The translations under genes were made by a program, and so were the position numbers. Shown here in pieces: positions 1,684-42,959 of a stretch of DNA of 64,000 nt. The notes beneath the pieces are model-generated. The model ran no database searches. It was not told the DNA's origin and saw only the letters and a list, made by a program, of their open reading frames with translations. The stretch lies in the NCBI GenBank assembly GCA_031404815.1, contig JANNIH010000013.1, positions 45,196 to 109,195 on the forward strand, given 5' to 3'. The DNA comes from Holophagales bacterium (lineage in GTDB: Bacteria; Acidobacteriota; Thermoanaerobaculia; Multivoradales; UBA5704). Each line of letters starts with the position of its first letter. The first letter of the stretch is position 1.

Positions 1684-1726
1684 CTGAGATCTCCTTTCGG
1701 CCTGTTCTATTGAGAAAGCATCGGAA

Positions 1727-9677: not shown

Positions 9678-10253
9678 TTGAGAGAAGCCACGATCACCCA
9701 ACTGCTCGTGCTGTGGAGCTCGGGAGACCGGGAGGCGGCGGAGCAGGTCCTCCCCTTGGTCTATGAAAAGCTGCGCAGCATCGCGTCCCGTCAGCTCCGC
9801 CTGGAGCGGGATGACCACACGCTTCAGCCAACCGCCATCGTGCATGAGGCCTACCTCCACCTGGTCGAGCAGGCGGGCCTGGATTGGCCGAGCCGGGCCC
9901 ACTTCTTCGCCTTCTCGGCGCGCCTGATCCGCCGCATCCTCGTCGACTATGCCCGACACCGGAACCGGGCCAAGCGGGGAGGTTTGAGCCGGAAGGTGAT
10001 GCTTCGCGAGATGGCGGACCTGGCGCTGGAGAAGAGTCCCGACCTGGTGGCCCTGGACGAGGCTCTCTCTGCCCTGGAAAAGGCCGATCCGCGCAAGGCG
10101 GCCGTCGTCGAGCTGAAGTTCTTCGGCGGGCTCACCCTCGACGAGATCGCCGAGCAGCTCGCGATTTCGCCCGAGACCGTGAGCCGCGAATGGCGCCGCG
10201 CCAGGGCCTGGCTCTACCGGGCGTTGCAGCCGAGCGCGGCGGCCAAAGCCTGA
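9678..10253 (+). CDS. ECF sigma-70 factor, TIGR02999-like subgroup (the type usually paired with Ser/Thr kinases). TTG start.
   Basis: ITQLLVLWSSGDREAAEQVLPLVYEKLRSIA is the hallmark N-terminus of this ECF group. Carries a sigma-4 HTH. Lies directly upstream of a Ser/Thr kinase. Confidence 0.8.
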   Translation: MREATITQLLVLWSSGDREAAEQVLPLVYEKLRSIASRQLRLERDDHTLQPTAIVHEAYLHLVEQAGLDWPSRAHFFAFSARLIRRILVDYARHRNRAKRGGLSRKVMLREMADLALEKSPDLVALDEALSALEKADPRKAAVVELKFFGGLTLDEIAEQLAISPETVSREWRRARAWLYRALQPSAAAKA

Positions 10254-10274: not shown

Positions 10275-13028
10275 ATGGAACCCGAATGGAACGAGGTGGA
10301 CCGCCTGTTCGCGGAGGCCCTGGACCGCCCGACCGCGGAGCGGCCGGCCTTTCTCGACACCGCATGCGCCGGGGACGCCGCCCTCCGCGGTGAAGTGGAG
10401 CAGTTGCTCGCCGCCGATGCAGAGGGGTGCGGTTTTCTGGAGAGCCCGCCGGACGAGCTGCTGCGGCTGACCCTCGATGCCGATGAGGAAGGCGGCAGCC
10501 TCGGCCCGTACCGGCTGCTGCAAAAGATCGGCAGCGGCGGCATGGGGACCGTGTATCTCGCCCGCCGGGAGGACGAGCACTACCGGCGCGATGTCGCCAT
10601 CAAAGTGCTCCGCTCCGGCCTGGCCAGCACCCAGGCCGTCCACCGCTTCGTCGCCGAACGGCAGATCCTGGCCCGCCTGGAGCATCCCAACATCGCCCGT
10701 CTCTACGACGGCGGCAGCACGGACGACGGCCGCCCCTATCTCGTCATGGAGCTGGTCGATGGGCTGCCCGTCGACCAGTACTGCGACCACCACCGGCTGA
10801 CCCTCAACCGGCGCCTCCTGCTGTTCCAGAAGATCTGCGCCGCCGTCCAGTACGCCCACCAGAACCTGCTGGTCCACCGCGACCTCAAACCCGCCAACAT
10901 CCTGATCACTCCCGAGGGGGAGCCCAAACTGCTCGACTTCGGCATCGCAAAGCAGCTCGCACCGGAAGTGGACGACACCCTGCTCCATACCCGGATCGGG
11001 TTTCAGCTCCTGACCCCCCGCTACGCCAGCCCCGAACAGGTCCGGGGCACCGCGATCACCACGGCGAGCGACATCTACTCTCTCGGTGTCCTCCTCTACG
11101 AGATCCTGGCGGGCCGCAGCCCTTACCCGGCCTTGGTGGAGCCGCGGTACGAAATCGAGCGCGCCATTTGCGAAGAGGAGCCGGAACGCCCCAGCCTGGC
11201 CCTGTTCCGGCCGGGACCGCCGAGCGTGAAAGAGATCGCCGCGGCCCGCAAGCTGCTGCCTCAAGCCCTTGCCCACCGGCTGAGCGGCGATCTCGACAAC
11301 GTCGCCCTGATGGCGTTGCGCAAGGATCCCCGGCGACGGTACGGCTCGGCCGAACAGCTCTCCCGCGACCTGGAAAGGCATCTGCGGGACCTCCCCGTCA
11401 CCGCCCGCCCCGACACCCTGCGCTACCGGTCGCGGAAATTCGTGCGCCGCCACCGCGCGGCGGTCGCGGCGACGGCGGCCATGGTGCTGCTCGCGGCAGG
11501 CTTCATCGCGAGCCTGGTCGTCCGGGGGCGCCAGCTCAACCGGGAGCGCGACAAGGCCCGCTATGCGCTCTCCTTCCTGGTGGATACCTTCAAGCAGGCC
11601 GATCCGTATCACACCCAGGGAGAGAGGCTCACGGCCCGCGAGATCCTCGATCAAGGGGCGAGCCGCATCTCGCGCGAGCTCACCGGCCAGCCGGACGTGC
11701 AGGCGGCCGTGATGGACGCGATCGGCGTGGTCAATCTCGGCCTGGGACGCTACGATCAGGCCGAGCCGCTCCTCGCCCGCTCCCTGGCGCTGCGCCGGCA
11801 GGTGTCCGGTCCCAACTCTCTGGACGTGGCGGACAGCCTGGAGCACCTCGCCGAGCTGCGCAACGAGCGCTCCGACCGAACCGGCGCGGAAACGCACCTG
11901 CGGGAGGCTCTCGCCATCCGGCGGCTCCACCAGGGCGACAACGACCTGGCCGTGGCCAGGACCCTCAACCGGCTCGGAGCGACTCTCGTCGAACCAGGCG
12001 TCTCTCCCGAGGCCGCGCCAGCGATCGAGGCGATCCACCGGGAGGCCCTCACCATCGCCCGTCGCGCCGAACGGCCCGAGGGCCTCACCGTGGCCGAGAC
12101 CTTTTTCGCCCTCGCGCATCTGCAACAGGCCCAGGGGAGCTACGCCGAAGCGGAGAGACTCTTCAGGGAGGGGCTGGCCATCGAACGCAAAGCTCTGGGA
12201 GACCGGGACCCGCGGCTCTACCGCGACCAGGCAGAGCTCAGCGCGATCCTGCTCGATGCGGGCAAGCTCAAAGAGGCGGAGGCCGTCCTGCGGCCCTGCC
12301 TCGCGCGGCAACGGACGATCCTCAGCCGCGCGCATCCGGACCTGATGACCACGCTGAACAATCTGGCCGTGGTTCTCGACCAGCAGGGCCGGCACACCGA
12401 GGCGGAGGCCGTGCATCGCGAGCTGCTGGCCCTGGCGCACTCGACCTTTGGTTCTGCCCACTGGCGGGTGGCCACCGCCCTCGTCCACCTGGCATCGAAC
12501 CTCGAGGGCCAGGGCAGGGGCAAGGAAGCGAGCGCCCTGTTTGAACAGGGGCTGGAGATCCGGCGCCGGACGCTCGGCGAGAAGGACTGGCAGACGGGTC
12601 AGGTCCTGCTGCTCCTCGCCCAGGCCTACCGCAATGACGGACAGTTCCTCAAAGCGCTTGGGCTCGCGTTGGAGGCCCATGCGATTCTCGAAGCCGGGGA
12701 AGGGCCGGATCACCCCTACGTAGCGCATGCGCTGCGAGAGATCGGAAGAAACTATCTGCTCCAGGACCGCTTCACAGAGGCGGAGCCCTACCTGCGCCGC
12801 TCCCTGGAAATCCGACGCCAGAAGCTTGCAGCCCGCCATCCCGATCTCGCCAAGGCCGAGGTCTCTCTGGCGCGATGCCTGATCGGGCAGGGTCGCCCCG
12901 AGGAGGCGGTTGCTCTGCTGCGGGATGCACGGACCACCTTCATCGCGGTGTATGGGCAAGACCACGAACTCTCCCAGGTGCCCGGCGACCTGCTGGCCGA
13001 GATCGAGCGCGCCCGCGCCAAGCCGTAG
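10275..13028 (+). CDS. Ser/Thr protein kinase with C-terminal TPR repeats (917 aa).
   Basis: GSGGMGTVYLARR...AIK and HRDLKPANIL kinase motifs. TM helix and long TPR region. Strong RBS AAGGAGGAGGA. Confidence 0.85.
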   Translation: MEPEWNEVDRLFAEALDRPTAERPAFLDTACAGDAALRGEVEQLLAADAEGCGFLESPPDELLRLTLDADEEGGSLGPYRLLQKIGSGGMGTVYLARREDEHYRRDVAIKVLRSGLASTQAVHRFVAERQILARLEHPNIARLYDGGSTDDGRPYLVMELVDGLPVDQYCDHHRLTLNRRLLLFQKICAAVQYAHQNLLVHRDLKPANILITPEGEPKLLDFGIAKQLAPEVDDTLLHTRIGFQLLTPRYASPEQVRGTAITTASDIYSLGVLLYEILAGRSPYPALVEPRYEIERAICEEEPERPSLALFRPGPPSVKEIAAARKLLPQALAHRLSGDLDNVALMALRKDPRRRYGSAEQLSRDLERHLRDLPVTARPDTLRYRSRKFVRRHRAAVAATAAMVLLAAGFIASLVVRGRQLNRERDKARYALSFLVDTFKQADPYHTQGERLTAREILDQGASRISRELTGQPDVQAAVMDAIGVVNLGLGRYDQAEPLLARSLALRRQVSGPNSLDVADSLEHLAELRNERSDRTGAETHLREALAIRRLHQGDNDLAVARTLNRLGATLVEPGVSPEAAPAIEAIHREALTIARRAERPEGLTVAETFFALAHLQQAQGSYAEAERLFREGLAIERKALGDRDPRLYRDQAELSAILLDAGKLKEAEAVLRPCLARQRTILSRAHPDLMTTLNNLAVVLDQQGRHTEAEAVHRELLALAHSTFGSAHWRVATALVHLASNLEGQGRGKEASALFEQGLEIRRRTLGEKDWQTGQVLLLLAQAYRNDGQFLKALGLALEAHAILEAGEGPDHPYVAHALREIGRNYLLQDRFTEAEPYLRRSLEIRRQKLAARHPDLAKAEVSLARCLIGQGRPEEAVALLRDARTTFIAVYGQDHELSQVPGDLLAEIERARAKP

Positions 13029-13194: not shown

Positions 13195-15559
13195 ATGAGA
13201 AACACGAAGCTGTTAACTCTCGCCTGTCTGGCCGTCCTGGCGACCATGAATGCCGCCTCCGTCGCCGGGCAACCGACGGAATCGACCGCTCCACTGCGGC
13301 TTTACACCCTCGACAGCAACCCCCTCGAAAGGGCCGCGGAGGGGTCGAGAACCGACGAGCTCGTTCCGGACGCCGCCGAGGAGTTCGCCATCGACCTCGA
13401 CCCGCAGGCCGTCGCCGACAATCCGCCCTCATTCCTCCTCGATCTTCCCGACGGGCGCACCTTGAAGGCCGTCCGCACCCGCTTCGTCGAGTATCGGGAG
13501 GATTGGAAGAGCTGGGTCGGCTTCGCGCGCGAAGTCGGCAACAAGAAGTCCAAGGCCGGTTTCATCCATCTCGGATATCACGGCGAGCAGCTCACCGCGG
13601 TGATTGATTTAGCGGGCGAACGGTACCGGATCGTCGGCGGCTTCGAGGACAGCCATCGCCTGGTCCGGCTCTCCGATGAGAAGGGACCGCTGTCCTGCGC
13701 GTTCGACGACGCGCAGGGTCTTGGTAAGGCGATGCTCGCAGCCGAAAGCGCCGCCGAGACCGAGGCACCGACCGAGACCGAGGCCGCCGCGCTCACCGCC
13801 AACCGCGTCGATGTCCTCGCCGTCTACCCCAAGGCCTTCTTCAGCACGGGCGCCGCGGAAGAGTCGGGGCTCTTCACCTTCATTCAGGATTCGATCTCGC
13901 TGGCCAACACGGTGTTCGCGAACAGCCAGGTCGACACGAGCTACAACCTGGTCGGCATCGTGCCGATCAAAGGCGTCGCTCAGCCGTCGGGTGGTATCTT
14001 CAACGCCCTGACGTGGTTGAATGGCCTGCCCTCGGAGGTCACGACCCTGCGCAACGCCTTCGGCGCCGACGTGGTGACCATCTACGTCCCGTTTTCCTGG
14101 AATGCCAACAACTACTGCGGCGTCGCCAATCTGCCCCAGAACAACAACACGTTCCTCGCGCCCAGTGGCACGGTGAATGCGCCGATGGGTGACAAGGCGT
14201 TCACCGCCAACCGGAACGCCTGCGGCCAAGGCGATTTCACGCTGGGCCACGAGATCGGCCACAACTACGGCATGTACCACGGTGACCAAGCGGCATCCTC
14301 GCTGGCGATATACCCGTACGCCCGGGGCAAACTCATCACGGTGGGCGGGGTGACCAAGGCTACCGTCATGCACTGCGTCTGCCCGACGGGGGGTTGCTTC
14401 GTCGGGAGCGGCTCCACCTGCAACCGGATCCCCCACTTCTCCGATCCGAACATCTTCTACCTGGGAGTTGCGACAGGCATGGCCGACCGCAACAACGCCC
14501 TGGCGGCCCGGAATGCGACTCCGATCTACGCCGGCTTCAAGCCACAGAGCACGAACACTCCCCCCAACGCCAACTTCACCACCTCCTGCTCCGGCGGCAC
14601 CTGCACCTTCAACGCCGGCTCCTCGACCGACAACACCGCGCTCCCGTCGAACGGCTACTGGTGGGACTTCGGCGACGGCACTACGGGCACGGGCGTGAGC
14701 ACGAGCCACTTCTATCAGACCGCCGGCTCCTACCGGGTCCACCTGGTGGTGACCGACGGCAACGGGACGACCGGCCAGACCGATGTCGCGTGGGGCTCCG
14801 TCAACCCGTCGCCGCTCTATGAGGGCTACCACGACATCGCGAATTGCCGCGACATCTCCGGCTGGGCCTGGGACCAGGGAAGCCCCAACACTGCGGTCAA
14901 CGTCGACATCCATCGGGACGGCACCAAGGTCTCGACCGTGCTGGCGGGGCCTCTTCCGCCAGGATCTCCTGAACGCCGGCAAGGGGAACGGCTATCACGG
15001 CTTCGGCTACTTCCCGAACAGCACGTGGAAGGACGGCCAGTGGCACACGGCCACCATCAAGTACACCGGATCGGGCGCAAACCTGAGCACGACCCCCAGG
15101 AGCGTGATCTGTGCCGTGAGCTGCTTGCCCGGCCTGACGCCCACGGAGAACCTCGACACGGCGGGCATCGTCTACACCGTCGCGACGCAGTTCAGCTCAA
15201 CCCATTCCGGATTCCTCACACACCTTCGCTTCTACAGGGCGCCCGGAGAGACCGGTACCAACGTCGGCACGCTCTGGTCCAATAGCGGCACCCAGCTCGC
15301 GCAAGCGACCTTCCCCAGCAGCCCGACCTCGGGCTGGGTCGAGGTCACAATCTCGCCTGTGGCCATCACGGCGGGAACCCTCTACCGCGTCGGAGTCAAC
15401 ACCAACGTCCGGCAATCCAAGACCGGGTGCGGCATCGGCTCGGGCATCACGAACCAGGTCCTGACCGCCCACTCGGGATACTGGATCGCCGGCAACGGCG
15501 TCTTCCCGACCACTGGAAGTTGCAGCAACTTCTTCGTGGACGTGAAGTTCGATCTTTAA
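13195..15559 (+). CDS. Secreted M12B/reprolysin-like zinc metallopeptidase with PKD and C-terminal DUF4082-like domains. A +1 frameshift sits near 14945 (G-run), so this is either a sequencing error or a pseudogene.
   Basis: Signal peptide. HEIGHNYGMYHGD is a metzincin HExxHxxGxxH motif. PKD segment GYWWDFGDGTTGTGVSTSHFYQTAGSYRVHLVVTDGNGTTG. The frame then switches (STVLAG | GLFRQDLLNAGKGNGYHG...) and continues into a DUF4082-like segment (LRFYRAPGETGTNVGTLWSNSGTQLA...GWVEV). RBS AAGGAGAA. Confidence 0.6.
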
Positions 15560-15609: not shown

Positions 15610-15783
15610 ATGGAGAAGAAGCAAGCGCAGAAGATATCCACCCTCACCCTGCGGACCGAAACCCTCCGCCGGCTCGACGATGCGCATCTGCCGGGAGTGG
15701 CCGGAGGAGGGAGGCTCCGCGTCCCCATCGGCTTCGCGAACGACACCACCCCGCTTTACGACGACGACACGACCGGCGGTTGA
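15610..15783 (+). CDS. GG-leader peptide, a putative RiPP/bacteriocin-type precursor (57 aa).
   Basis: MEKKQAQKISTLTLRTETLRRLDDAHLPGVAGGG + RLRVPIGFANDTTPLYDDDTTGG. The leader fits the K-rich LxLxxETLRxLxx...VxGG pattern of double-glycine natural-product precursors. RBS AAAGGAG. Confidence 0.4.
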   Translation: MEKKQAQKISTLTLRTETLRRLDDAHLPGVAGGGRLRVPIGFANDTTPLYDDDTTGG

Positions 15784-25556: not shown

Positions 25557-26408
25557 TTACGGCGCCGTCACCGGCTCGGCGCGGAAGCGCCCGGGACGGT
25601 CGGAGACCAGCCGCGCGAGCGGAGTTTCGGCGTCGTGCTCGAAGATGCAGAGCCAATGTTCTTCCGCGGCGCGCGGCAGCCATTTCTTCTTGTTCTCAAG
25701 GGTCGTCAGAGGATAGAGGTCGTAGCCCATGATCCAGGGGAGCGGCACGTGGGCGACGGTCGGGACCAGGTCGGCCCAGAAGACTCCGCACTGGCTCTCC
25801 CCTCCATCCAAGAGAACGATGCACATGTCCGCGTTATGCCCCGGGGTGCGCACCGCGCGGACGCCCGGCATCGGCACCGCTTCGTCGTCGAACAGCTCGA
25901 CGACTCCAGCTTCGAACAGCGGCTCCCAGTTGTCGGGAAAGTAGCTCGCCCGGTCGCGCTCGCTGGGGTTGCGGGCGTGCTCCACTTCTCCCCGGTTCAG
26001 CCAGTAGCGGGCGTTCGGGAAGGTCGGAACCACCCGCCCCTCGGGATTGCGGCGGGTGTTCCAGCCGGAATGGTCGAAATGGAGGTGCGAAAGGAGGACG
26101 TGGGTGACGTCGGTGAGATCGAATCCGGCCCTCCGGATCGATTCGGGCAGGCGGACGGCGTGGGGGTCCATGCCATAAATCTCGCCGAACTTCTCGTTGT
26201 GTTTGTCGCCGATGCCGGTGTCGATCAGGAGGAGGTCGCTCCCCCTCCGGACCAGCAGGCAGTTGGTCGCCATGCGGATCCGGTTGTCCTCGTCCGGCAC
26301 TTTGGCTTCGGCCCAGAGCGTCTTCGGCACCACCCCGAACATGGCTCCGCCGTCGAGGCGGCACTCTCCATCACCGACCAGGGTCAGCTCGAGGTCTCCA
26401 AGGCGCAT
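25557..26408 (-). CDS. MBL-fold metallo-hydrolase (283 aa from MRLGDLELTLVG...).
   Basis: HLHFDHSGW (HxHxDH) metallo-beta-lactamase motif. Confidence 0.7.
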   Translation of the reverse strand: MRLGDLELTLVGDGECRLDGGAMFGVVPKTLWAEAKVPDEDNRIRMATNCLLVRRGSDLLLIDTGIGDKHNEKFGEIYGMDPHAVRLPESIRRAGFDLTDVTHVLLSHLHFDHSGWNTRRNPEGRVVPTFPNARYWLNRGEVEHARNPSERDRASYFPDNWEPLFEAGVVELFDDEAVPMPGVRAVRTPGHNADMCIVLLDGGESQCGVFWADLVPTVAHVPLPWIMGYDLYPLTTLENKKKWLPRAAEEHWLCIFEHDAETPLARLVSDRPGRFRAEPVTAP

Positions 26409-26496
26409 CACGGGAGCGAATTTATAGCATAGAGCTTCGCTGCACCCAGGCCACGAGACCGGGCGCCGGAGGAGTGTCCGGCGCCCTCGCTTCAAC

Positions 26497-26682
26497 TTAG
26501 CGGCAGATGCAGACCGAAATCGGACCGCAGGAGTCGGTGCACTGGGCGGAGGTGGTACATACGGTAGGGTTGACGGTGCAGTTCGAGGTCGCTCCACCCG
26601 CAACCTCGAGCATGTCGAAGTTGTTCAGACGGCGCACGGTCTCTGCACTCAGGGCCAGTTTCTTGTCGCGCTTCGATTTCAT
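26497..26682 (-). CDS. GG-leader, Cys/Thr/Ser-rich RiPP-like precursor peptide (61 aa).
   Basis: MKSKRDKKLALSAETVRRLNNFDMLEVAGG | ATSNCTVNPTVCTTSAQCTDSCGPISVCICR. RBS AGGGGA. Same leader architecture as 15610-15783. Confidence 0.5.
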   Translation of the reverse strand: MKSKRDKKLALSAETVRRLNNFDMLEVAGGATSNCTVNPTVCTTSAQCTDSCGPISVCICR

Positions 26683-26816
26683 GGGCGGTCCCCTATTCGT
26701 TCGGAGGGCGAAGGATTTCGCCTTCTCGAAGAGATAGGCGTCATCTGGGGTGAAACCGAATCACGCGCCGTCCGCGGCGGCTCAGAACAGATTAGAATCT
26801 CTCCCGGGAGGTCCCC

Positions 26817-27032
26817 ATGGCGCTCCAGTTCGATGTCATCGTCGAAAAAGATTCCGACGGCTATTTCGTGGCTTCGGTCCCGGTCTTGCCGGGCTGTCAC
26901 ACCCAGGCGAGGTCCCTCGACGAGCTGATGGCGCGAATCCGAGAGGCTATCGAGCTTTGCCTCGAGGTCGAGGGAGCGCCGGGCGAGTCTCTGGACTTTG
27001 TTGGAGTCCAGCGGATCACGGTCGCCGCATGA
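26817..27032 (+). CDS. hicB: HicB-family antitoxin.
   Basis: UPF0150/HicB N-terminal fold (FDVIVEKDSDGYFVASVPVLPGCHTQARSLDE...). The ATGA overlap places the hicA start on its stop. Confidence 0.75.
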   Translation: MALQFDVIVEKDSDGYFVASVPVLPGCHTQARSLDELMARIREAIELCLEVEGAPGESLDFVGVQRITVAA

Positions 27033-27253
27033 CGACCTGGCCGAGCCTTTCGGGTAAGCAAGTGCTCGCCGCTCTCTCCCGAGTAGGTTTCGAGACCCTC
27101 CGCGTCAAAGGCAGTCACCACTTCCTGCGCCACCCCGACGGCCGATCCACGGTCGTCCCGGTTCACTCCAACGAAGCGATCGGACGTGGTCTCCTCGCCA
27201 AGATCCTGCGCGACTGCGACCTGAGCCGCGAGCGGTTTCGAGAGCCGCTCTGA
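27029..27253 (+). CDS. hicA: HicA-family mRNA interferase toxin.
   Basis: LSGKQVLAALSRVGFETLRVKGSHHFLRHPDGRSTVVPVH is the HicA (YcfA) signature. Confidence 0.75.
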   Translation: MTTWPSLSGKQVLAALSRVGFETLRVKGSHHFLRHPDGRSTVVPVHSNEAIGRGLLAKILRDCDLSRERFREPL

Positions 27254-29519: not shown

Positions 29520-30998
29520 ATGAAATCCAACGGCCACTCCTCTCGCGAGCGTCTGCAGTCGATCGCCCATCGCGTCATGCTCGAGCGCGGCCTTGAGCCG
29601 GACTTTCCCTCCGCGGCCCTTAACCAGGTCGCAATGTTGCGCGGTCCCGCGAATGCGGACGACACGGCGGGTGTCCGAGATCTGCGCGATCGGCTCTGGT
29701 GCTCGATCGACAACGACGATTCGCGCGACCTCGACCAGCTGACGGTCGGCGAGAAGCTCCCGGCGGGTGGCGTCCGCCTGCTGATCGCGATCGCCGACGT
29801 CGATGCCCTGGTACCGGCCGGCAGCCCGGTCGATCGGCATGCGTACGCCAACACCACCTCGGTCTATACCGCGGCGCGGATCTTTCCGATGCTGCCGGAG
29901 CGGCTTTCGACCGACCTCACCTCGTTGAACGAGGGGGAAGAGCGGCTCGCGGTGGTGGTTTCGATCGATCTCGACGCTCGGGGCAAGATCGGCGCCTCCG
30001 ACGTATACCGCGGCCGGGTGGAGAACCGCGCGAAACTCGCCTATGGCGCGGTCGCCGCCTGGCTCGAAGGGACCGGGCCGCTGCCGGAAGCCGCCGCCGC
30101 GGTGCCCGGTTTGCCTGAAAACTTGAAGCTGCAGGACCGGGCGACGCAACAGCTCCGCACGCTGCGGGCGGCAAGCGGCGCGCTGTCGCTCGAATCGATC
30201 GAAGCGCGGCCGGTGTTCGACCACGACCGTCTGCGCGACCTCGAAGCGCAGGAGAAGAACCGGGCCAAAGAGCTGATCGAGGACTGCATGATCGCGGCGA
30301 ACGGGGTCACCGCGCGCTTCTTGGACGGGCACGGCTATGCCTCGCTCCGCCGGGTGGTGCGGGTGCCGAAACGTTGGAGCCGGATTGTCGACCTGGCCCG
30401 AGGCTTCCGCGTCAAGCTGCCCGATGAACCCGACCACCGCGCGCTCTCCCGGTTTCTCGACGCCCGCCGAGAGGCCGATCTGGAGGGCTTTCCCGAGATC
30501 TCACTCTCCGTGGTCAAGCTGCTCGGCTCGGGCGAGTACGCGGTCGATCTGCCGGGCGAAGACCCTCCGGGCCACTTCGGTCTCGCGGTGCGCGACTACG
30601 CTCATTCGACCGCGCCGAACCGTCGCTTCCCCGACCTGATCACCCAACGGCTGCTGAAGGCCGCATTCCTGGGCGCTCCCTCACCCTACTCGGTACCCGA
30701 CCTCGAAGCGCTGGCGCGTCAATGCACGAAGAAAGAGGACGACGCGAGCAAAGTCGAGCGCCAGGTCCGCAAATCGGCTGCGGCTCTGCTCCTCTCCGAC
30801 CGAATCGGCCAGACGTTCGACGCGATCGTCACCGGTGCCTCGGAAAAAGGCACTTGGGTGCGCGTCTTCCATCCTCCGGTCGAAGGGCGGCTGGAGCGCG
30901 GCCATGAGGGTCTGGATGTCGGCGACCGTCTGCGCGTCCGCCTGCTCGACACCGATGTCGAGAGGGGATTCATCGATTTCGCGAGAATCGACGGCTGA
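29520..30998 (+). CDS. RNB-domain 3'-5' exoribonuclease (RNase II/R family, short form).
   Basis: RNB catalytic-region motifs (DLD...DDAL-like, VYTAARIFPMLP) and a C-terminal S1-like domain. Confidence 0.7.
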   Translation: MKSNGHSSRERLQSIAHRVMLERGLEPDFPSAALNQVAMLRGPANADDTAGVRDLRDRLWCSIDNDDSRDLDQLTVGEKLPAGGVRLLIAIADVDALVPAGSPVDRHAYANTTSVYTAARIFPMLPERLSTDLTSLNEGEERLAVVVSIDLDARGKIGASDVYRGRVENRAKLAYGAVAAWLEGTGPLPEAAAAVPGLPENLKLQDRATQQLRTLRAASGALSLESIEARPVFDHDRLRDLEAQEKNRAKELIEDCMIAANGVTARFLDGHGYASLRRVVRVPKRWSRIVDLARGFRVKLPDEPDHRALSRFLDARREADLEGFPEISLSVVKLLGSGEYAVDLPGEDPPGHFGLAVRDYAHSTAPNRRFPDLITQRLLKAAFLGAPSPYSVPDLEALARQCTKKEDDASKVERQVRKSAAALLLSDRIGQTFDAIVTGASEKGTWVRVFHPPVEGRLERGHEGLDVGDRLRVRLLDTDVERGFIDFARIDG

Positions 30999-31061
30999 AC
31001 CGGGAGGACCGGGACGCCCCCTTGCCGGGTAGACCGGAAGGGGGCAAGAGGACTGCGATTT

Positions 31062-31622
31062 TTACGCCGCGCCGCGCGACTTGACCGGTAGTTTGACCGG
31101 TAGTTTGACCGGATAACCGAGCGCGAGCAGCTGCTCGCAAAGCACCATCTGACAACGACCGACCACCTTGCGGATGCTCGACGGGCGGTAGTCGAGCTGG
31201 GCTGCGACCTCTCCCGGGCGCATGCCCATGCCGTAGCGGAGGCGGAGCAGGTCGCGACAGCGCGGCGAGAGCTGGTCGAGAGCCCGGGCGAGATCACGGC
31301 GGAGGGCTATTTTCTCTTGCGCCGGGGCTTGCGGCTCGGCCAGCAGGTCGAGGATCGCCGCATCGACCGACTCGGCGAGCTGACGGCGGGCACCGCGCCA
31401 ATGCATCACGCAGCGCCACTTGAGGGTTCCGATCAACCAGGCTTCGGGGCACTCGACCTCGTCCCAGCGTTGCAGCAGGATGACCAGCGAATCTTGAATC
31501 AGATCCTCGGCGTCTTGGGCCGAGACGCGATAGCGGCGCAACACCCGTTCGATCTTCGGGCGCAGCGAAGGGAGCAGATCGGCAAAGGAGTCCGCGTAGA
31601 GGGTTCTGGCGAGCGGTGTCAT
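31062..31622 (-). CDS. ECF sigma-70 factor. The C-terminus carries PVKLPVKLPVK, encoded by a 12-nt tandem repeat at 31070-31105.
   Basis: Sigma-2 region (DLIQDSLVILLQRW) and sigma-4 HTH. Confidence 0.7.
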   Translation of the reverse strand: MTPLARTLYADSFADLLPSLRPKIERVLRRYRVSAQDAEDLIQDSLVILLQRWDEVECPEAWLIGTLKWRCVMHWRGARRQLAESVDAAILDLLAEPQAPAQEKIALRRDLARALDQLSPRCRDLLRLRYGMGMRPGEVAAQLDYRPSSIRKVVGRCQMVLCEQLLALGYPVKLPVKLPVKSRGAA

Positions 31623-32087
31623 GCGAGGTCGGTTCCTCCGAGCTTTCGGTTCAAGGCCTTACGGCCCGGGAGGGAGCGCCACCGGCAGGCTTTTACAGTG
31701 CAGCAAAGTCTCGAGCGTCGAAGGGTTCGCCAACGCGTTCTCCCGGCGACGTACCCAGAGAACGTGGGGTCTGCCAAGCCTTGTCTTCACTGGTGGAAGC
31801 CTTGTGCTGCGGAGCGTACTCCAGATGACCGAGAGGCGACAATCTACGATCGTTTCGGGGCGACCCGATGAACCGCTTTCTGTCGGCCTCCGCGCGGGGA
31901 GACCCGGGCTTTCACCCGGGGTTCGAAGCCCCGTCTTTGACCCCCGGTGTCCTGGCCGGAAAGCCGAAGCGGAACGGACCTGCGCAGTCTACTCCAAAAA
32001 ATTGGCGATCAACCCTGTCAATTTTTGACCAGTGACCGCGAAACGACGCGCGATGAAATCCTCACCCCCCTGATATTCTTCCCCACC

Positions 32088-33272
32088 ATGCTGCGACGCC
32101 TCTCCCTCACCACCGCCGGCGAGAGCCATGGCCCAGGCCTGACCGCGATCCTCACCGGTCTGCCTGCCGGGCTGCCGATCGATTTCGACCTGCTCGCCCG
32201 CGATCTGGCGCGGCGGCAGCACGGCTTCGGCCGCGGGCGCCGGATGGCGATCGAGCACGATCGCGCCGAGCTTCGCGCCGGGGTGCGCGGCGGCGAGACG
32301 ATCGGCGGCCCGGTCGCCCTCTGGATCGAGAACCGCGATTGGGTGAACTGGCAGCAGGTGATGGGCATCGAGGCGGTCGATCCGCACCGGGCCGAGCTGC
32401 GGCGGATCAAAAGCCCGCGCCCCGGTCATGTCGATCTTCCCGGTGGCCAGAAATATGACCGCCGCGATCTGCGCGACGTGCTCGAACGGGCGTCCGCGCG
32501 CGAGACCGCCGCCCGGGTCGCGGCCGGTGCCCTGGCCAAGATGCTGCTCGGCGCGCTCGGGATCGAGATCCGTAGCGGCGTCCGCTCGTTGGGGCCGATC
32601 GGCACCGATCGGGCAACCCCCGATTGGGAAGATCTGCTCGGGGTGGACGACAGCTCGCCCTTGCGCGCGATCGACCGGGCGCTCGAACCCGAGATGATCC
32701 GGCTGGTCGAGGAGGCCAAGGACCTTGGGGAGACGCTGGGCGGCGCGGTCACCGTGATCGCCCGCGGCGTGCCGGTAGGCCTCGGTTCCTACGTGCAGTG
32801 GAGCGACAAGCTCGACGGTCGGCTGGCCCAGGCGGTGCTCTCGGTCCACGCGATCAAAGCGGTCGAGATCGGCGGCGGGATCGAGGCGAGCCGCGGCTTC
32901 GGCAGCACCGCCCACGATCCGATCGAGATCGAAAACGGGAGGTTCGTCCGCCCGACCAATCGCGCCGGCGGCCTGGAAGGGGGGGTCACCAACGGCGAGG
33001 ACGTGGTGATCACGGCCTACAAGAAACCGATTGCGACGCTACGCAAAGGGCTCCCTTCGGTCGATCTCGACACCCTGGAAGCGGCGCCCTCCCAATACGA
33101 GCGGAGCGATGTGACCGCGCTCCCGGCGGCCGGCGTGATCGTCGAGGCGATGGTCGCCCTGGTCCTCGCCGACGCGCTACTCGAGAAGCTCGGCGGCGAC
33201 TCGCTCGCCGAGGTCAAAGCCCACGCCCTAGCCACTAGAGCCCTCCAGGAACGTTGGTCGAACCGCAGTTGA
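32088..33272 (+). CDS. aroC: Chorismate synthase.
   Basis: MLRRLSLTTAGESHGPGLTAILTGLPAGL..., GRSSARETAARVAAGA and the G-rich C-terminal half are typical of AroC. Confidence 0.85.
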   Translation: MLRRLSLTTAGESHGPGLTAILTGLPAGLPIDFDLLARDLARRQHGFGRGRRMAIEHDRAELRAGVRGGETIGGPVALWIENRDWVNWQQVMGIEAVDPHRAELRRIKSPRPGHVDLPGGQKYDRRDLRDVLERASARETAARVAAGALAKMLLGALGIEIRSGVRSLGPIGTDRATPDWEDLLGVDDSSPLRAIDRALEPEMIRLVEEAKDLGETLGGAVTVIARGVPVGLGSYVQWSDKLDGRLAQAVLSVHAIKAVEIGGGIEASRGFGSTAHDPIEIENGRFVRPTNRAGGLEGGVTNGEDVVITAYKKPIATLRKGLPSVDLDTLEAAPSQYERSDVTALPAAGVIVEAMVALVLADALLEKLGGDSLAEVKAHALATRALQERWSNRS

Positions 33273-36204: not shown

Positions 36205-38001
36205 TCAAGCGACCGCGAGAGCCGGGACAGGCTCCAGCGTCGGTTCGGGCACCGCGGAGCGGCTCGACACAGGGCTTGGCGCACCGAGCGCCCGGCGGAG
36301 AATCATCGGATCGAAGCCCCACTCCATCTCTCCGGGAATCGCGCGCGCCTCGTCCCAGGCCGCTCCGAGCGCCACCGGATCGAAACGGAGATGTTCGAGG
36401 TCGATCCGCTCCACGAACGCGCGGCTCGAGAAGACCTCTGCGGTGCCGAGCACCGTCGAGGCCACTTGGGCCACCGTGTAGCGCGCCTGGATCTCAAGCG
36501 ATGAGAGCGCCCGGTCGAGCACGCCGCGCGCCTCGACCGGGTGGAGGCCGATCTTGTAGAACGACTGCTCCGCTTCGCGCAAGGGCCCGATCGACGGAAA
36601 GTCGAAGAAGATCGGCGCCCTGGGCGCAGGCAGACCCGCGGTCAATTTCCAGCGCTGGAACTCGGCGAGGAAGGTCTGCAACCCCAGATTCCACGGCCCG
36701 AGCTTGGCGAACCGGCGCAGAAACGAGGGGAGGAAGATCGGGTCGGTGAACAGGTCGTTGATGAACGGAAAGACATAGAAATTGAAGTAGATCGACAGCT
36801 CCCATGCGTAGCGGAGGGTGAACGCCTCCTGGTCACCGAGCGTGTTGTACGACAGCAGGTAGCTCGGCACGTACGCCTCGTAGAGACCGCGGGCGAGCGT
36901 TTCGTACAAGCGCACCTTGGTCGCGAGCAGCCCACCATCTGTGGTGCGGATCGCGTCGGTGATCAACGTGTTGTGGACCGCGATCAGGTCGCCCCCCGGG
37001 CTGTAGAGCGGATCGGAGAATCGGCACGCCTCGCCGGTGAGCGCCCACCGCTCGTTCGACAAGGTCTGCCGGCAGTCGTGGGCGAAGCTCACGAAACCGG
37101 AACCGTCGAAGATCTTCCGTTGCGGCAGGTCGCGGGCGAAGAGCGGAAACTCACGGCAGATCCAGGCCACCAGCTTCTCCGGGCTGGACACCTCGGCGCG
37201 GTGGATCTTTTGGGAGTCGTAGACCAAGCCGAGGCTGGTCTTGCCGTGCAGCGGGATGACCCAGAACCAGAAACCGTCGCCGCAGAAGTGGTTGGTGGCC
37301 AAGAAGGTCGGCATGTGGCCGAGCGCCGCGCGGTCCGGGCGCTTGCGGATCTCTCCCGCCGACAGATCGGTGAGCTTCTCAGGATCGAGCAACCCTTCGA
37401 CCCAGAAGAACGAGGTGCCATGGCGGATCGGGCTCTCGGCCAGCAGGCCGAGCTTCTTGGCCAGGAAGCGCCGACGCCCCGACGCATCGACCACCCAGCG
37501 CGCTCGTCCCTCGACCCGCTCGCCGTCGGCCGCGGTGTAGCTGAACTCGTGGCGCGCGTCGCCGGCCCCCATTTCGACTTCCAGCCCCGAGATCGGAGCG
37601 GCCAGGGTGAAGCGCGGATCGGCCGCATTCACCCGCAGCAACTCGGCCTCCAGGAGGTTCCGGTCGAGCTGGTAGGTCGCGATGTTCGAGACCGATTTGA
37701 TGTACGACTGGCTGTACCCCTCAGCGCGATCTTCGAGGCCCGGCACTTTCCACCAGAAGCGGAGGTTGTACTTCAAGTAGTGCTGCCGCAGCAGATGCTC
37801 TTCCAACTCGAGCACGCGCGAAAAGTAATAGCCGGAGACCTGCACCGTCGCCTCGCCCACCTTCTGCTTCTCGGGCGGCACCGCTCGACGATCGACCAGG
37901 TGGACCGAAGGGACGCCTTCTAGCAACAGCTGGCGAGCGAGCGACAGGCCGGCGAGACCGGCCCCGACGATCAGGACGTCGCAGTCGAGGGTTCGTGTCA
38001 T
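36205..38001 (-). CDS. Flavin-dependent halogenase (tryptophan-halogenase family).
   Basis: GAGLAGLSLA FAD fold plus the diagnostic GDGFWFWVIP (WxWxIP) motif. Confidence 0.75.
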   Translation of the reverse strand: MTRTLDCDVLIVGAGLAGLSLARQLLLEGVPSVHLVDRRAVPPEKQKVGEATVQVSGYYFSRVLELEEHLLRQHYLKYNLRFWWKVPGLEDRAEGYSQSYIKSVSNIATYQLDRNLLEAELLRVNAADPRFTLAAPISGLEVEMGAGDARHEFSYTAADGERVEGRARWVVDASGRRRFLAKKLGLLAESPIRHGTSFFWVEGLLDPEKLTDLSAGEIRKRPDRAALGHMPTFLATNHFCGDGFWFWVIPLHGKTSLGLVYDSQKIHRAEVSSPEKLVAWICREFPLFARDLPQRKIFDGSGFVSFAHDCRQTLSNERWALTGEACRFSDPLYSPGGDLIAVHNTLITDAIRTTDGGLLATKVRLYETLARGLYEAYVPSYLLSYNTLGDQEAFTLRYAWELSIYFNFYVFPFINDLFTDPIFLPSFLRRFAKLGPWNLGLQTFLAEFQRWKLTAGLPAPRAPIFFDFPSIGPLREAEQSFYKIGLHPVEARGVLDRALSSLEIQARYTVAQVASTVLGTAEVFSSRAFVERIDLEHLRFDPVALGAAWDEARAIPGEMEWGFDPMILRRALGAPSPVSSRSAVPEPTLEPVPALAVA

Positions 38002-38053
38002 GGCGGTCCCTTTCTGCTCGAACCCCTTGAGGAGGAGTCCGAGGGCAAGTTCG

Positions 38054-39292
38054 TTACGCGTCGGGCGCCCCGACCAACAGCGCCATCACCGGTCCGTCGG
38101 CCGAGACCGAGGTCGCGAGCGCGAGCGCGCCGGGCCGCACGGAGATCTGTTGCACCGCAGCCGAAACGCCGCCGAGCGGGAATCCGTCGTCGGTCGCTTC
38201 GAGCCCGATGACCCCCGGTAGACGCCCGTCGGCCAAGGAAGCGATCAGACTCATCACTTGGAACACGCCAGAGGCCCCGAGAGCTTCCCCCAACCTCGAT
38301 TTGATCGCGGCGACCGGTAGATCCAACCCGTTACCCGAGCCGCTCTCAAGCCCCCGGGCGATCCCCGCGGCCTCGAACCGGTCGAGATCGCGCGCACCGC
38401 TCGCGCCGGAACCGACGCAACAGAGGTCGGCGCGCAAGGCGCCGCGATCCGCGAAAGCGGCGTCGATCGCCCGTGCGAGCGCGCCGGCCAGATCCTCGCT
38501 CCGGTCCGGCGCGAACGCCGCGCCGCTCCCCGCGATCCGCGCCAAGACCGTGGCACCACGCGCCGCCGCCACCTCGGCCGCTTCGAGCACCAGCAACCCC
38601 GCCCCTTCCGCAGGCACAAAACCGGTGCGCCGTCGGTCGAACGGAATTGAGACTCCCCCAAGGCCGGCGAGCCGCCCGGCGCGCGAATAGGCGAGCGCCG
38701 ATTCGAAGCAGAGCTCCTCCACCCCACCCGCGAGCACCACATCGGTCTGGCCGGTGCGGATCAGGTCGGCGGCGTAGGCGATCGCCTGAAGCCCGGAAGT
38801 CTCCCCGCCGCCGAGTGTCGAGTTGACTCCGGAGAAGCCGTGCCAGATCGCCGCCTGGCCGGCTGCGGCGTTGATCACACTGTTGGCGAAATCGAACGGG
38901 GAGACGTAGTTCGGTCCGAGCTTCAAGCCGCGGCGGTCGAACTCGGCGATCGTGTGCATGCTGCAGTAGGTCGTGCCGACCACCAGCGACAGCTCGCGCC
39001 CGCCGCGCGCCTCAGGGCTCCAGCCGGAATGTTCGAGCGCGCGGGTGGCCGCCGAGATCAACAGCCGCGAGGTCCGGTCGAGCGGCCGCAGGTTCCGGTC
39101 GCCCAAATAGCGTTCCGGCTCGAACGGCCGGATCTCGCCGCCCACCTGGGTCGTGAGCAGGCTCGAATCGAACAACTCGATCGGGCCGATCCCGCTCTGC
39201 CCGCCGAGCAGCGCCTCGTGCACCGCGCCCAACTCGTCGCCGAGCGGCGAAAGCAGGCCGATCCCGGTGACCACGACCGCGCGCTCAGACAC
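38054..39292 (-). CDS. Ketosynthase-like protein lacking the active-site Cys (chain-length-factor-like, KS-beta).
   Basis: Thiolase fold. Where KS-alpha has TACAAG this protein has GGETSG, with Cys replaced by Glu. Translationally coupled to KS-alpha. Confidence 0.65.
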   Translation of the reverse strand: MSERAVVVTGIGLLSPLGDELGAVHEALLGGQSGIGPIELFDSSLLTTQVGGEIRPFEPERYLGDRNLRPLDRTSRLLISAATRALEHSGWSPEARGGRELSLVVGTTYCSMHTIAEFDRRGLKLGPNYVSPFDFANSVINAAAGQAAIWHGFSGVNSTLGGGETSGLQAIAYAADLIRTGQTDVVLAGGVEELCFESALAYSRAGRLAGLGGVSIPFDRRRTGFVPAEGAGLLVLEAAEVAAARGATVLARIAGSGAAFAPDRSEDLAGALARAIDAAFADRGALRADLCCVGSGASGARDLDRFEAAGIARGLESGSGNGLDLPVAAIKSRLGEALGASGVFQVMSLIASLADGRLPGVIGLEATDDGFPLGGVSAAVQQISVRPGALALATSVSADGPVMALLVGAPDA

Positions 39293-40535
39293 GAGGCCTC
39301 CGGAAGATCACCGAGGCGTTGTTGCCGCCGAACGCGTAGGCGTTGTTCATCGCGACCGAAACCGGAATCTGGCGCGCCTGGTTCGGCACGCAATCGAGAT
39401 CGCATTCCGGATCGCTCTCCTCGAAGTTCATGGTCGGTGGGATCCACCCCTCGTGGATCGCGAGCGCACAGACCGCCGCCTCGATCGCCGACGCCGCGCC
39501 CATCGTGTGGCCGATCATCGACTTGATCGAGCTGATCGGCACCCGGGACCCGCGCCCGAACACCCGGTGCACCGCGAGCGTCTCCAGCTTGTCGTTGGTG
39601 GGCGTCCCGGTGCCGTGGGCGCTCACGTAGGAGACCTCTTCCGCGGACAGACCGCCCGCGGCGAGCGCCCGCTCCATCGCCCGCGCCGGTCCGTCCCCTT
39701 CCGGGTGCGCCGCGGTCATGTGGTGGGCGTCGCACGATAAGCCGTAGCCGGCGATCTCGGCGTAGATCCGGGCGCCGCGCGCGATCGCCCGCTCGGTCGG
39801 TTCGAGCACAATCACGCCCGCCCCTTCGCCCGGGATCATTCCCTTCCGTCCCTTGGCGAACGGACGGACGACGTCCGGCGCGATCGCGCCTAGTTTCGCG
39901 AAACCGGTGTACGTGATGCGCGAGAACGCGTCCGCCCCTCCGGCGATCATCAGATCAGCCCGGCCGGCCCGGAGCAGATCGACGGCGTGGGCGATCGCGT
40001 AGTTGCCCGCGGCGCAGGCGGTCGGGATCATCTGGTTCGGCCCCGCGAACCCGAGTTCGGAGGCGACATTGGCCGCGATCAGATGGCACGGATAGCGGCC
40101 GGCCAGCTCGCCCCCCAGCTCGCCGAGCCGGTCGCCGAGCATCAGGTTGTCCAGGTGCTCGATCTCCAGCGGCTCGCCGGAGGTCGTGCCAAACGCGACC
40201 CCGACGCGCTCCGACCGTTCGAGGGGCATGGGCGCCAAATCGACCCCTGCGTCGGCGAGCGCCAGACGGGCCGCTGCGATCGCGAGCTGGGACGCGCGCC
40301 CCATCGAATCGACCCGGAGCCGGCGGACCCAGGCGGTCGGGTCGAAATCCGGCACCTCGGCCCCCAGGTGCGCCGAGTGGCGCGAGGTGTCGAATGAAGA
40401 GACCGGCCGGAACCCCGAGCGCCCGGCCAGGAGGCCGGGCCAAACCGTTTCGTGGCCCGAACCGATCGGGGTGACCAGCCCGAGCCCGGTGACGGCGATC
40501 GCGGTCGTCCGGCGTTCTCCCGCGCTCGACCTCAC
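39285..40535 (-). CDS. Beta-ketoacyl synthase (KS-alpha) with intact Cys-His-His.
   Basis: IPTACAAGNYAIAHA active site. HGTGT and GHT..AAS motifs present. Confidence 0.8.
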   Translation of the reverse strand: MRSSAGERRTTAIAVTGLGLVTPIGSGHETVWPGLLAGRSGFRPVSSFDTSRHSAHLGAEVPDFDPTAWVRRLRVDSMGRASQLAIAAARLALADAGVDLAPMPLERSERVGVAFGTTSGEPLEIEHLDNLMLGDRLGELGGELAGRYPCHLIAANVASELGFAGPNQMIPTACAAGNYAIAHAVDLLRAGRADLMIAGGADAFSRITYTGFAKLGAIAPDVVRPFAKGRKGMIPGEGAGVIVLEPTERAIARGARIYAEIAGYGLSCDAHHMTAAHPEGDGPARAMERALAAGGLSAEEVSYVSAHGTGTPTNDKLETLAVHRVFGRGSRVPISSIKSMIGHTMGAASAIEAAVCALAIHEGWIPPTMNFEESDPECDLDCVPNQARQIPVSVAMNNAYAFGGNNASVIFRRPRV

Positions 40536-40794
40536 GCCGAGACCGGCGCCAACTCGGCGAGTCGCGTCTCGACCAGATCGACCATCTGCGGCAGGGTGGC
40601 CAGCTCCTTGTAACGCTCGTCAGGAAGATTGAGTTGGAACGAGTAATCGACATCGACGCCTATCTCGAGCAGCGACAGCGAGTCGAGCGACAAGTCGTCG
40701 CGCAGCGAATCTTCGTCGCCGATCTTCTCGCGCTTCAAGCCGGCGACGTTCGCGATGATTTCCTTGATCTTTTCGCGGATCTCGATTCTTTCCA
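40532..40794 (-). CDS. Acyl carrier protein.
   Basis: LSLDSLSLLEIGV phosphopantetheine-attachment motif. RBS AGGAGGAA. ATGA overlap with KS. Confidence 0.75.
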
Positions 40795-41016
40795 TGACTT
40801 CCTCCTGGTTGCCCGGTCGCACCCCGTTTGCCGGCGAATCCTAGGCCTCTTCCGCTCGGAAGTGAATCTTCTCTAGCGTCGGAAGGTCCTTTGAAATAAG
40901 GACTTGCGCGTCTCGTCCCCAAAATTTCACCATCCCGCCAGAGAGAGGCTCCGGGGCGGCGCGAAGCGTTACACGCACCCCGCTATCCGGGAAATCTCGG
41001 TTCAGGACCCAAGGGC

Positions 41017-42038: not shown

Positions 42039-42959
42039 ATGCCGTTCGTGCTCGGCGTCGGCCGCTCCGGCACCACGATGCTGCGCCTGATGCTCGACGC
42101 GCACTCCCGGCTCGCGATCCCGCCCGAGACCGGTTTTTCCGAGGAGATCGAGCGCCGCATGTCGGCGGGAGTGTCGCTCGCCGAGGCGGCGCTCGGCGCC
42201 ATCTCCGACTGCGACAACGCTCAGAGCTTTGGCCTCGCCGCGGACGACCTGGCGCGCGCGTTCGCCCACCTCCCGCCCGGCGACCGGTACGGCACCGGGG
42301 TTGGACTCGCTCTGCGCGCGTTCTACCGCCTCTATGCCGAAACCCAAGGGAAGCCGCGCGCGGGAGACAAGACGCCGATCCACACCGGCCACATCACGCG
42401 CCTCGCGCGTTACCTACCGGAGGCGCGCTTCATCCACTTGATCCGCGACGGCCGCGATGTCGCGGCGTCGATCCGCGATCTCTGGTTCGCCCCCAGCCGC
42501 GAGTTGGGCGCCTTGGCCCTTTGGTGGCGGGAAACTATCGAGGCGGCGCGGCGCCAGGCGAGCGATCTACCGGCCGGCACCTACCTCGAAGTGCGCTACG
42601 AAGAGCTGGTCGCGCATCCCGCCGCAGAACTCCAACGGATTTGCGCGTTCGCCGATCTGCCGTTCGAACCCGAGATGCTCGACTTCCACGCCCGCGCCCC
42701 GGCACGCCTCGCCGAAATGCAGACGGTTCGCGGGCAAGACGGCCGGGTGGTGATCACCGACGAGGAGCGACGCCACCAGCACCGGCTGACCACCGAGCCG
42801 CCCCGCACCGAACGGATCGGCCGCTTCCGCAGCGTCCTTACCCACCGAGAGATAGCGAAGTTCGAAGCGGAAGGCGGCACCTTTCTGCGGGACCTCGGCT
42901 ACCCGCTGGTCACCAGCTCTTGGGCGCGGCTTCGGGCGCGCATCTCCCGTTCGAGATAA
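42039..42959 (+). CDS. Sulfotransferase (Stf0-like family).
   Basis: PAPS-binding loop FVLGVGRSGTTML. RDGRDV motif. Confidence 0.65.
   Translation: MPFVLGVGRSGTTMLRLMLDAHSRLAIPPETGFSEEIERRMSAGVSLAEAALGAISDCDNAQSFGLAADDLARAFAHLPPGDRYGTGVGLALRAFYRLYAETQGKPRAGDKTPIHTGHITRLARYLPEARFIHLIRDGRDVAASIRDLWFAPSRELGALALWWRETIEAARRQASDLPAGTYLEVRYEELVAHPAAELQRICAFADLPFEPEMLDFHARAPARLAEMQTVRGQDGRVVITDEERRHQHRLTTEPPRTERIGRFRSVLTHREIAKFEAEGGTFLRDLGYPLVTSSWARLRARISRSR

Follow-up and report, generated by a model that had tools for sequence, protein, structure and literature searches.

The question raised by a 64,000-nucleotide stretch of DNA from a Holophagales bacterium of the Thermoanaerobaculia (Acidobacteriota; assembly GCA_031404815.1, contig JANNIH010000013.1; the whole stretch is hereafter the window) is how a short, cysteine-rich peptide is matured when its gene stands apart from any recognisable modification enzyme. 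The gene lies on the minus strand at 26497..26682, and a sequence-only reading of the window had likened its product to the precursors of lanthipeptides or ranthipeptides, both of them peptides that are made on the ribosome and modified after translation (RiPPs). We favour, with reasonable confidence, a stand-alone lanthipeptide precursor of class I type (LanA), which would be modified in trans by enzymes with genes at other sites of the genome.

Is there a gene here at all? On the minus strand, an open reading frame (ORF) of 61 codons plus stop runs from an ATG at 26682-26680 to a TAA at 26499-26497; the plus-strand translation of the same interval is meaningless. The product, MKSKRDKKLALSAETVRRLNNFDMLEVAGG|ATSNCTVNPTVCTTSAQCTDSCGPISVCICR, divides exactly as had been proposed, into a leader ending in a double glycine (GG) and a core of 31 residues with six Cys and ten Ser/Thr. 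The leader (residues 1-30, MKSKRDKKLALSAETVRRLNNFDMLEVAGG; 26593..26682, minus strand) carries the motif L9-x-L11-x-x-E14...L19 and a G29-G30 cleavage site. The core (residues 31-61, ATSNCTVNPTVCTTSAQCTDSCGPISVCICR; 26500..26592, minus strand) has a variable N-terminal half and an invariant CT[DE]SCGP[IL]SVCIC. A search of 5.8 billion proteins returned 16 homologues at 69-100% identity, and those with a named source all come from Thermoanaerobaculia (Acidobacteriota) metagenome-assembled genomes (MAGs) or metagenomes. Across the family alignment the six Cys are invariant and T32, S33, T36, T44, S45, T49, S51 and S56 are conserved, the variable stretch of the core being made up of the residues between the first three Cys. 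Selection was estimated by the Nei-Gojobori method from 11 orthologues and paralogues, giving a ratio of nonsynonymous to synonymous substitution (dN/dS) of 0.36 for the whole gene (dS 0.70), 0.29 for the leader region, 0.59 for the N-terminal half of the core and 0.16 for its C-terminal 13 residues (dS 0.34); dS across these regions is 0.34-0.8. The gene thus passes the check on selection that the sequence-only reading had offered as a possible refutation, at 0.16-0.59 by region. Homologues at these identities, conserved synteny and purifying selection together place the precursor beyond chance: the ORF at 26497-26682 is a real, conserved gene under purifying selection. Pfam assigns it to no family, even at E≤10, and AlphaFold2 (AF2) run on the 16-sequence alignment gives no confident autonomous fold (pLDDT 56), an outcome compatible with a RiPP precursor, although it is weak evidence.

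The leader indicates which type of precursor this may be. All 16 members of the family match the NCBIfam class I lanthipeptide profile NF038153 (lant_leader_L1a) at E≤0.01 (best E 1.3e-7); the window peptide scores 20.8 bits with it, against a cutoff of 22 (E 3.3e-4). Two siblings, P0008 and P0015, have already been named 'class I lanthipeptide' by PGAP. A second profile, PF28317 (Lant_leader_dom), gives a weak match on distant relatives only, namely P0026 and the peptide of locus L020. In the window leader the motif LxLxKx5L...GG takes the form L9-A-L11-S-A13-(ETVRR)-L19 ... G29-G30, with Ala in place of Lys at the fifth position, which is K, R, A or S in most relatives. Since this motif equals the LxLxKx5L-GG leader described for class I LanAs of Bacteroidetes, the clusters of which often encode a C39 protease (Walker et al., PMC7268733), the window leader can be assigned to the class I LanA leader type.

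A second GG-leader ORF was observed in the window at 15611-15783 (plus strand; 57 aa, MEKKQAQKISTLTLRTETLRRLDDAHLPGVAGG|GRLRVPIGFANDTTPLYDDDTTGG), preceded by a good ribosome-binding site. The resemblance between the two leaders that had been noted earlier, for a peptide placed at 15610, is real, in that both share LxLxxETLRRL...VAGG. Its core is Asp/Thr-rich and has no Cys, so it cannot be a lanthipeptide, and searches against Pfam and NCBIfam gave no match; its existence suggests that this type of leader may serve the export of more than one peptide class. The genes upstream of it encode, at 9678-10253, an extracytoplasmic function (ECF) sigma factor, at 10275-13028 a Ser/Thr kinase-TPR protein and, at 13195-15285, a reprolysin-like metalloprotease that contains a PKD domain.

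The composition of the core can be set against a wider family. When 1.84 billion cluster representatives were searched exhaustively with a profile, 342 relatives were recovered at E≤1e-3; most are peptides of 50-75 residues that share the leader and have cores rich in Cys, Thr and Ser. Among 144 representative relatives, Ser plus Thr equal or exceed the number of Cys in 142, and a Ser or Thr lies 2-7 residues upstream of 98% of Cys, figures that are partly circular in that the search profile included the core; matches that align over the leader alone also have one to six Cys preceded by Thr/Ser. The Cys of the window core are spaced C-x6-C-x5-C-x3-C-x5-C-x-C, and each has a conserved Ser or Thr one to six residues before it (T32/S33-C35, T36-C42, T44/S45-C48, T49/S51-C52 and S56-C58/C60). 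At one of these positions, Ser51, the residue is retained in L015 despite a codon change from TCC to AGC. Two further motifs were considered by eye and rejected: the Cys spacing does not fit an inhibitor cystine knot, and the sequence does not fit a lipid II motif of nisin or mersacidin type, CT[DE]SCGP[IL]SVCIC containing neither the nisin-type SxxxCTP(G/S)C nor the mersacidin-type TxTxEC (motifs as given in PMC7268733).

The same core might alternatively belong to a secreted peptide that is rich in disulfides but otherwise unmodified and that resembles a bacteriocin or a signal. Its GG leader would serve only for its own removal and for export through a peptidase-containing ABC transporter (PCAT), and three disulfides would form outside the cytoplasm. 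We regard this as unlikely. The six invariant Cys are even in number, the locus has no modifying enzyme in seven of eight distinct genomic contexts, and GG leaders also occur in unmodified class II bacteriocins (PMC7268733). However, among the representative relatives with the same leader, odd and even Cys counts number 68 and 76 respectively, and an additional short paralogue within locus L022 has five Cys; this lack of preference for even numbers argues against a disulfide-based family. The conservation of Ser/Thr before each Cys, including the Ser-preserving change in L015, likewise points elsewhere, as does the presence of an adjacent gene for the lanthipeptide enzyme LanC in loci L008 and L031. 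Neither a PCAT nor an immunity gene is found at the locus, and AF2 yields no confident compact fold, although this last is weak evidence.

If the peptide is a lanthipeptide precursor, where are the enzymes? Pfam scans of the window covered ORFs with coding-like codon bias together with long ORFs, and tblastn was run with LanB, LanC and LanT. Neither approach found LanB, LanC, LanT, HlyD or a C39 transporter in the 64 kb, in agreement with the earlier statement that no canonical RiPP enzyme lies near the precursor. In other Thermoanaerobaculia, canonical class I clusters occur with the same leader type as the window peptide: locus L025 contains LanB (1092 aa, PF04738 and PF14028), a C39-ABC LanT, an HlyD-like gene, a precursor (MKKSRKLVLHRETLHSMDLRGVAGG...), LanC and a LytTR/His-kinase pair, and L026 has the same core set. 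Closer to the window gene, locus L008 (GCA_044226625.1) contains two family peptides and a third GG-leader peptide (core FWSIPTHCPDDYPDC...), then LanC (438 aa, PF05147), then the gene for a metallo-beta-lactamase (MBL)-fold hydrolase that also lies downstream of the precursor in the window. P0019 (...CSGDSVCIC...), the nearest outgroup to the core, abuts a LanC in L031; this LanC has another GG-leader peptide at its flank as well, and there is no LanB on the 10.7-kb contig. Locus L020 shares samples with P0015, and the L020 LanC (HXU34620) and P0015 (HXU31384) are in one NCBI accession block; the two probably come from the same MAG. This shows, as judged from gene order and accessions, that family precursors occur in the same genomes, and at the same loci, as enzymes of lanthipeptide synthesis. 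The view that the peptide is lanthipeptide-like and an orphan substrate, put forward from the sequence alone, has therefore gained support from the NF038153 leader, from LanB/LanC/LanT clusters with the same leader type and from LanC adjacency in relatives.

Enzymes of this kind are themselves often dispersed. Solo LanC genes with their own GG-leader, Cys-rich precursors were observed in L008 (10336-11989), L020 (9724-11583) and L031 (2338-4055), where the 8-10 kb of sequence at hand in each case contained no LanB; the L008 and L020 LanCs travel with the conserved FWSIPTHCPDDYPDC... peptide. All six LanCs examined keep the motifs GVAHG, WCYG and CHG, which correspond to the catalytic His and Zn ligands of NisC. 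Locus L028, from a Thermoanaerobaculia MAG that is less closely related (GCA_037024655.1), combines LanB with LanC, and neither a precursor nor a LanT lies within 10 kb of them. Across many Thermoanaerobaculia MAGs LanB is 58-84% identical over ~1090 aa, the accompanying LanCs 38-54%, which hints that the class has long carried LanB and passes it on by vertical inheritance. Because dispersed organisation is common in Thermoanaerobaculia, maturation in trans is plausible.

Several observations weigh against a class I precursor modified in trans. The window peptide falls 1.2 bits under the NF038153 cutoff; the composition statistics are, as stated, partly circular; six Cys, being an even number, would permit three disulfides; and the window itself holds none of the enzymes. 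The only close orthologue of the L008 LanC (54% identical) lies beside an FWSIPTHC-type peptide at an unrelated locus, L020, so that the L008/L020 LanC is tied primarily to the FWSIPTHC... peptide, and its adjacency to the family in L008 may be an insertion accident; a search of genome contigs with the L008 LanC returned only itself. None of the 18 accession-bearing LanB matches, and neither of two further LanB loci, is in a precursor-bearing MAG. Contig ends set the extent of what can be compared for two of the more distant peptides, that of the outgroup P0017 ending 127 bp past the gene and that of P0026 being 3.4 kb long. We conclude that the precursor is a probable member of the class I LanAs with an LxLxKx5L-GG leader, located apart from its enzymes; the assignment is probable and not certain because the gene does not cluster with LanB/LanC/LanT and because its score is below the cutoff of the hidden Markov model.

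Under this reading maturation would proceed as follows. The 61-residue peptide would be translated from its own monocistronic cassette, and a trans-encoded LanB would bind the leader and dehydrate some of the eight conserved Ser/Thr, in a glutamyl-tRNA-dependent reaction, to dehydroalanine or dehydrobutyrine. A zinc-dependent LanC would then add the thiols of the six invariant Cys, forming up to six (methyl)lanthionine rings for which T32/S33, T36, T44/S45, T49/S51 and S56 are plausible donors, and an ABC transporter of the LanT type, equipped with a C39 peptidase domain, would cut after Gly29-Gly30 and export the 31-residue product. The invariant C-terminal CTDSCGPISVCIC is probably a compact, overlapping ring system and the functional core, and the variable N-terminal rings would diversify between paralogues. 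[quoted passage not shown]

The flanks of the gene are also conserved. An alignment of the upstream regions of 13 paralogues and orthologues defines a conserved 5' region at 26683..26765 (minus strand, as are all elements that follow). Nearest to the gene is a Shine-Dalgarno-like AGGGGA (26689-26694), 6 nt upstream of the ATG; a hairpin, GGCGAA-ATCC-TTCGCC (26704-26727), lies in the 5' untranslated region (5'-UTR) ~25 nt upstream of the start codon; and beyond it are two conserved boxes, GACGCCTATC (26733-26742) and, farthest upstream, CGTGATTCGGTTT (26753-26765). The hairpin is found upstream of syntenic precursor paralogues in L001, L008, L009, L012 and L022, and its pairing is kept by compensatory changes, for instance GGACGA/TCGTCC in L009b. 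A promoter scan of the 5' region gave no sigma-70 consensus, and Rfam returned only chance-level matches. The hairpin may be a cassette-specific regulatory or mRNA-stabilising element.

At the other end, 10 nt past the precursor stop, is a GC-rich, terminator-like hairpin with a 10-bp stem (GGGCGCCGGA/UCCGGCGCCC; 26461..26486), and the fold of 26400-26500 on this strand has a free energy of -42.9 kcal/mol (z = -2.4). Nearly all 13 precursor genes have a GC-rich hairpin of 10-12 bp at 8-11 nt past the stop, weaker in L015, and the stems differ in sequence between paralogues with pairing kept. A terminator scan did not call the hairpin at 26461-26486, because it has no U-tract. Directly past it is a conserved box, TGCTATAAAT (26420..26429), 11 nt upstream of the MBL ATG at 26408. 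This box is kept in L009, L012 and L022, and also in L008, where the stop codon of the inserted LanC lies inside it. Since a hairpin follows the precursor and the conserved TGCTATAAAT box then precedes the MBL gene, the precursor would appear to be monocistronic and the MBL gene to have a promoter of its own.

Could the precursor be an evolutionary relic, one that has survived the loss of its LanB/LanC cluster and is not matured any more in this organism? The window has no enzymes, and it retains one paralogue where several relatives have two or three. There is also a difference between the window and L028 (intervals compared: 8482-15997 in L028 and 29520-33272 in the window). In L028 the LanB-LanC pair sits between the genes for RNase II and chorismate synthase, and in the window the corresponding slot, 3 kb from the precursor, holds an ECF sigma gene only (31062-31622). 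Chance may account for this difference, or it may be what is left of an ancestral cluster. On the other hand, purifying selection acts on the protein across at least eight genomes, with dS up to ~1; the leader, the cleavage site, the 5' region and the terminator hairpin are all conserved; and no copy contains a frameshift or stop. A relic therefore strikes us as improbable.

Only slight credence can be given to a substrate for thioether formation by a radical-SAM/SPASM enzyme (a ranthipeptide, the other possibility raised by the sequence-only reading, a sactipeptide or a peptide of TIGR04149 type) acting in trans. The core is Cys-rich, and TIGR04149 (GG_sam_targ_CFB) gives weak, sub-cutoff matches to the leaders of four of the 16 family members (best E 6e-4), the window peptide giving no match. 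NF038153, however, matches all 16, and more strongly; no ORF examined, either in the window or in 10 kb of flank at the family loci, encodes a radical-SAM protein; and the only RiPP enzyme seen beside these peptides is LanC.

What of the neighbouring genes? Those reported from the sequence alone were found as described. The MBL-fold hydrolase gene (25557-26408, minus strand; PF00753, E 7e-14) lies downstream on the same strand; its product has the metal motif HLHFDH, its nearest NCBIfam entry is the YtnP lactonase family, and its nearest families overall are YtnP/AidB lactonases and methyl-parathion-hydrolase (MPH)-like structures. Upstream, on the opposite (plus) strand, are hicB (26817-27032) and hicA (27029-27253). 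Every recovered locus with enough flank has the same backbone: a class A beta-lactamase, a DeoC aldolase, a variable islet, one to three precursors, the MBL gene, lpdA, E1-alpha, E1-beta and E2. Identity to the window is 93-96% for DeoC (81% on the short L024 fragment), 85-95% for lpdA and 80-89% for the MBL protein; the locus in GCA_031396975.1 matches the window, and a metagenome search with the peptide alignment yielded three loci only. Two paralogue types occur among the precursors, 'a' ending in ...CTESCGPISVCIC[GA] and 'b' ending in ...CTDSCGPISVCICR, of which the window has 'b' only. The islet contains hicBA, a dual-specificity phosphatase or other ORFs (among them one of 199 aa on the opposite strand in L024), and a role for hicBA was rejected, since in relatives a phosphatase or other genes take its place.

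A dedicated partnership between the MBL-fold hydrolase and the peptide, for maturation as had been suggested, or for immunity or degradation, is very hard to credit. One or more peptides do lie directly upstream of the MBL gene on the same strand in every recovered locus, and in L008 the stop codon of LanC and the start of the MBL gene are 11 nt apart. But the genomes are close relatives in which synteny alone predicts such adjacency, so that it carries little functional weight, a terminator-like hairpin follows nearly every precursor and the promoter-like TGCTATAAAT box is kept even after the LanC insertion, L024 has other ORFs, including the apparent 199-aa opposite-strand gene, between peptide and MBL gene, the YtnP/MPH family comprises small-molecule lactonases without a known RiPP role, and the gene is part of the lpdA-E1-E2 backbone. 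We judge the lactonase-like MBL gene and hicBA to be neighbours and not partners.

Other features of the window and of the related loci are recorded here as separate observations. Small ORFs with a hydrophobic, signal-peptide-like N-terminus and a Cys-rich C-terminus (e.g. ...CFAFGICKACTPTTAKPCLVVQCGTHRTENCGSCTANC...) occur in L024 (1662-1967, plus strand), near the precursor locus, and in L028 (2631-2858, plus strand), near LanB-LanC; they are of a different kind from the precursor. At the edge of the window (7-1866, minus strand) is a gene for a phage tail-sheath-like protein (PF04984/PF17482), perhaps part of a contractile injection system or of a prophage; genes for eCIS_core and PAAR occur in L028 as well, near LanB-LanC. 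The minus strand at 36205-40822 encodes an FAD-dependent halogenase-like protein (36205-38001), two ketosynthase-like proteins (38054-39292 and 39285-40535) and, at 40532-40822, an acyl carrier protein; genes for EamA transporters and, at 42899-44623, for a flavin monooxygenase are next to it. The set at 36205-40822 resembles a type II polyketide synthase or aryl-polyene-like locus and seems to have no connection with the peptide. Finally, a 118-aa ORF (44633-44989, minus strand) matches the iodothyronine deiodinase family (PF00837, E 4.5e-23) over the C-terminal half of that domain; its product, of thioredoxin fold and unusual in bacteria, may be truncated or selenoprotein-related.

How does a stand-alone class I precursor compare with known systems? 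Its leader (L-x-L-x-x-E-T-x-R-x-L, with GG ~10 residues on) is like that of the Bacteroidetes-type class I LanAs recognised by NF038153, as is a core of 20-45 residues rich in Cys and Thr/Ser, and the canonical clusters similarly contain a C39-ABC transporter instead of a LanP protease. Pinensin is, according to PMC7268733, the one lanthipeptide that has been isolated from Bacteroidetes. The window copy differs in that at least 26 kb to one side of it, and 37 kb to the other, lack LanB, LanC and LanT, and the host belongs to the Acidobacteriota (Thermoanaerobaculia) and not to the Bacteroidota.

A parallel in organisation is offered by the prochlorosins of marine picocyanobacteria (ProcA/ProcM, class II), in which one enzyme set acts on many precursors, some of them encoded far from the synthetase gene, with a conserved leader ending in GG and hypervariable cores (PMC10783134). 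In Thermoanaerobaculia, precursors, LanC-only modules and LanB-LanC pairs similarly occupy separate loci. Prochlorosins are made by a single bifunctional LanM and have Nif11-type leaders, whereas here the candidates are separate LanB and LanC proteins and modification in trans is our interpretation; and, in contrast to the hypervariable prochlorosin cores, the C-terminal half of the window core is invariant. Within the same bacterial class, Thermoanaerobaculia have been shown experimentally to make lanthionine-containing RiPPs from Cys-rich cores (ThaA/ThaM), the ThaA/TheA precursors being processed by a class II LanM and a thiazole-making GMC oxidoreductase (PMC13083261). The window peptide shares with these a leader followed by a C-terminal Cys-rich core. 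The GMC oxidase acts on a Gly-Cys motif, whereas the window gene has neither a LanM nor a GMC oxidase near it and the peptide contains no G-C dipeptide.

The precursor is an expected type of gene, already labelled as such by the NCBI pipeline in sibling genomes, and is unusual in its enzyme-free location. Cluster mining that is anchored on enzymes would be expected to miss stand-alone precursors of this kind. Its six-Cys C-terminal motif is conserved throughout and its N-terminal half varies, which makes the precursor a reasonable candidate for heterologous co-expression. More generally, the parts of class I lanthipeptide systems in Acidobacteriota can be spread over the chromosome, as lone precursors, as LanC with precursors and as LanB with LanC without precursors. 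Because the parts are scattered in this way, counts of biosynthetic gene clusters underestimate product diversity, and the pairing of enzymes with substrates will have to be worked out genome-wide. It is possible, and we suggest it tentatively, that a dispersed class I system extends across the whole class, as a LanB/LanC counterpart of the prochlorosins, in which one strongly conserved LanB would dehydrate many scattered precursors that share a leader, several LanCs, some of them solo genes next to particular precursors, would set ring topology, and the precursor described here would have a lineage-wide physiological role. As a vertically inherited cassette at a core-genome site, with an invariant C-terminal ring region and its own conserved 5'-UTR hairpin, it would then serve a signalling, metal or envelope function, and would not encode a strain-specific antibiotic.

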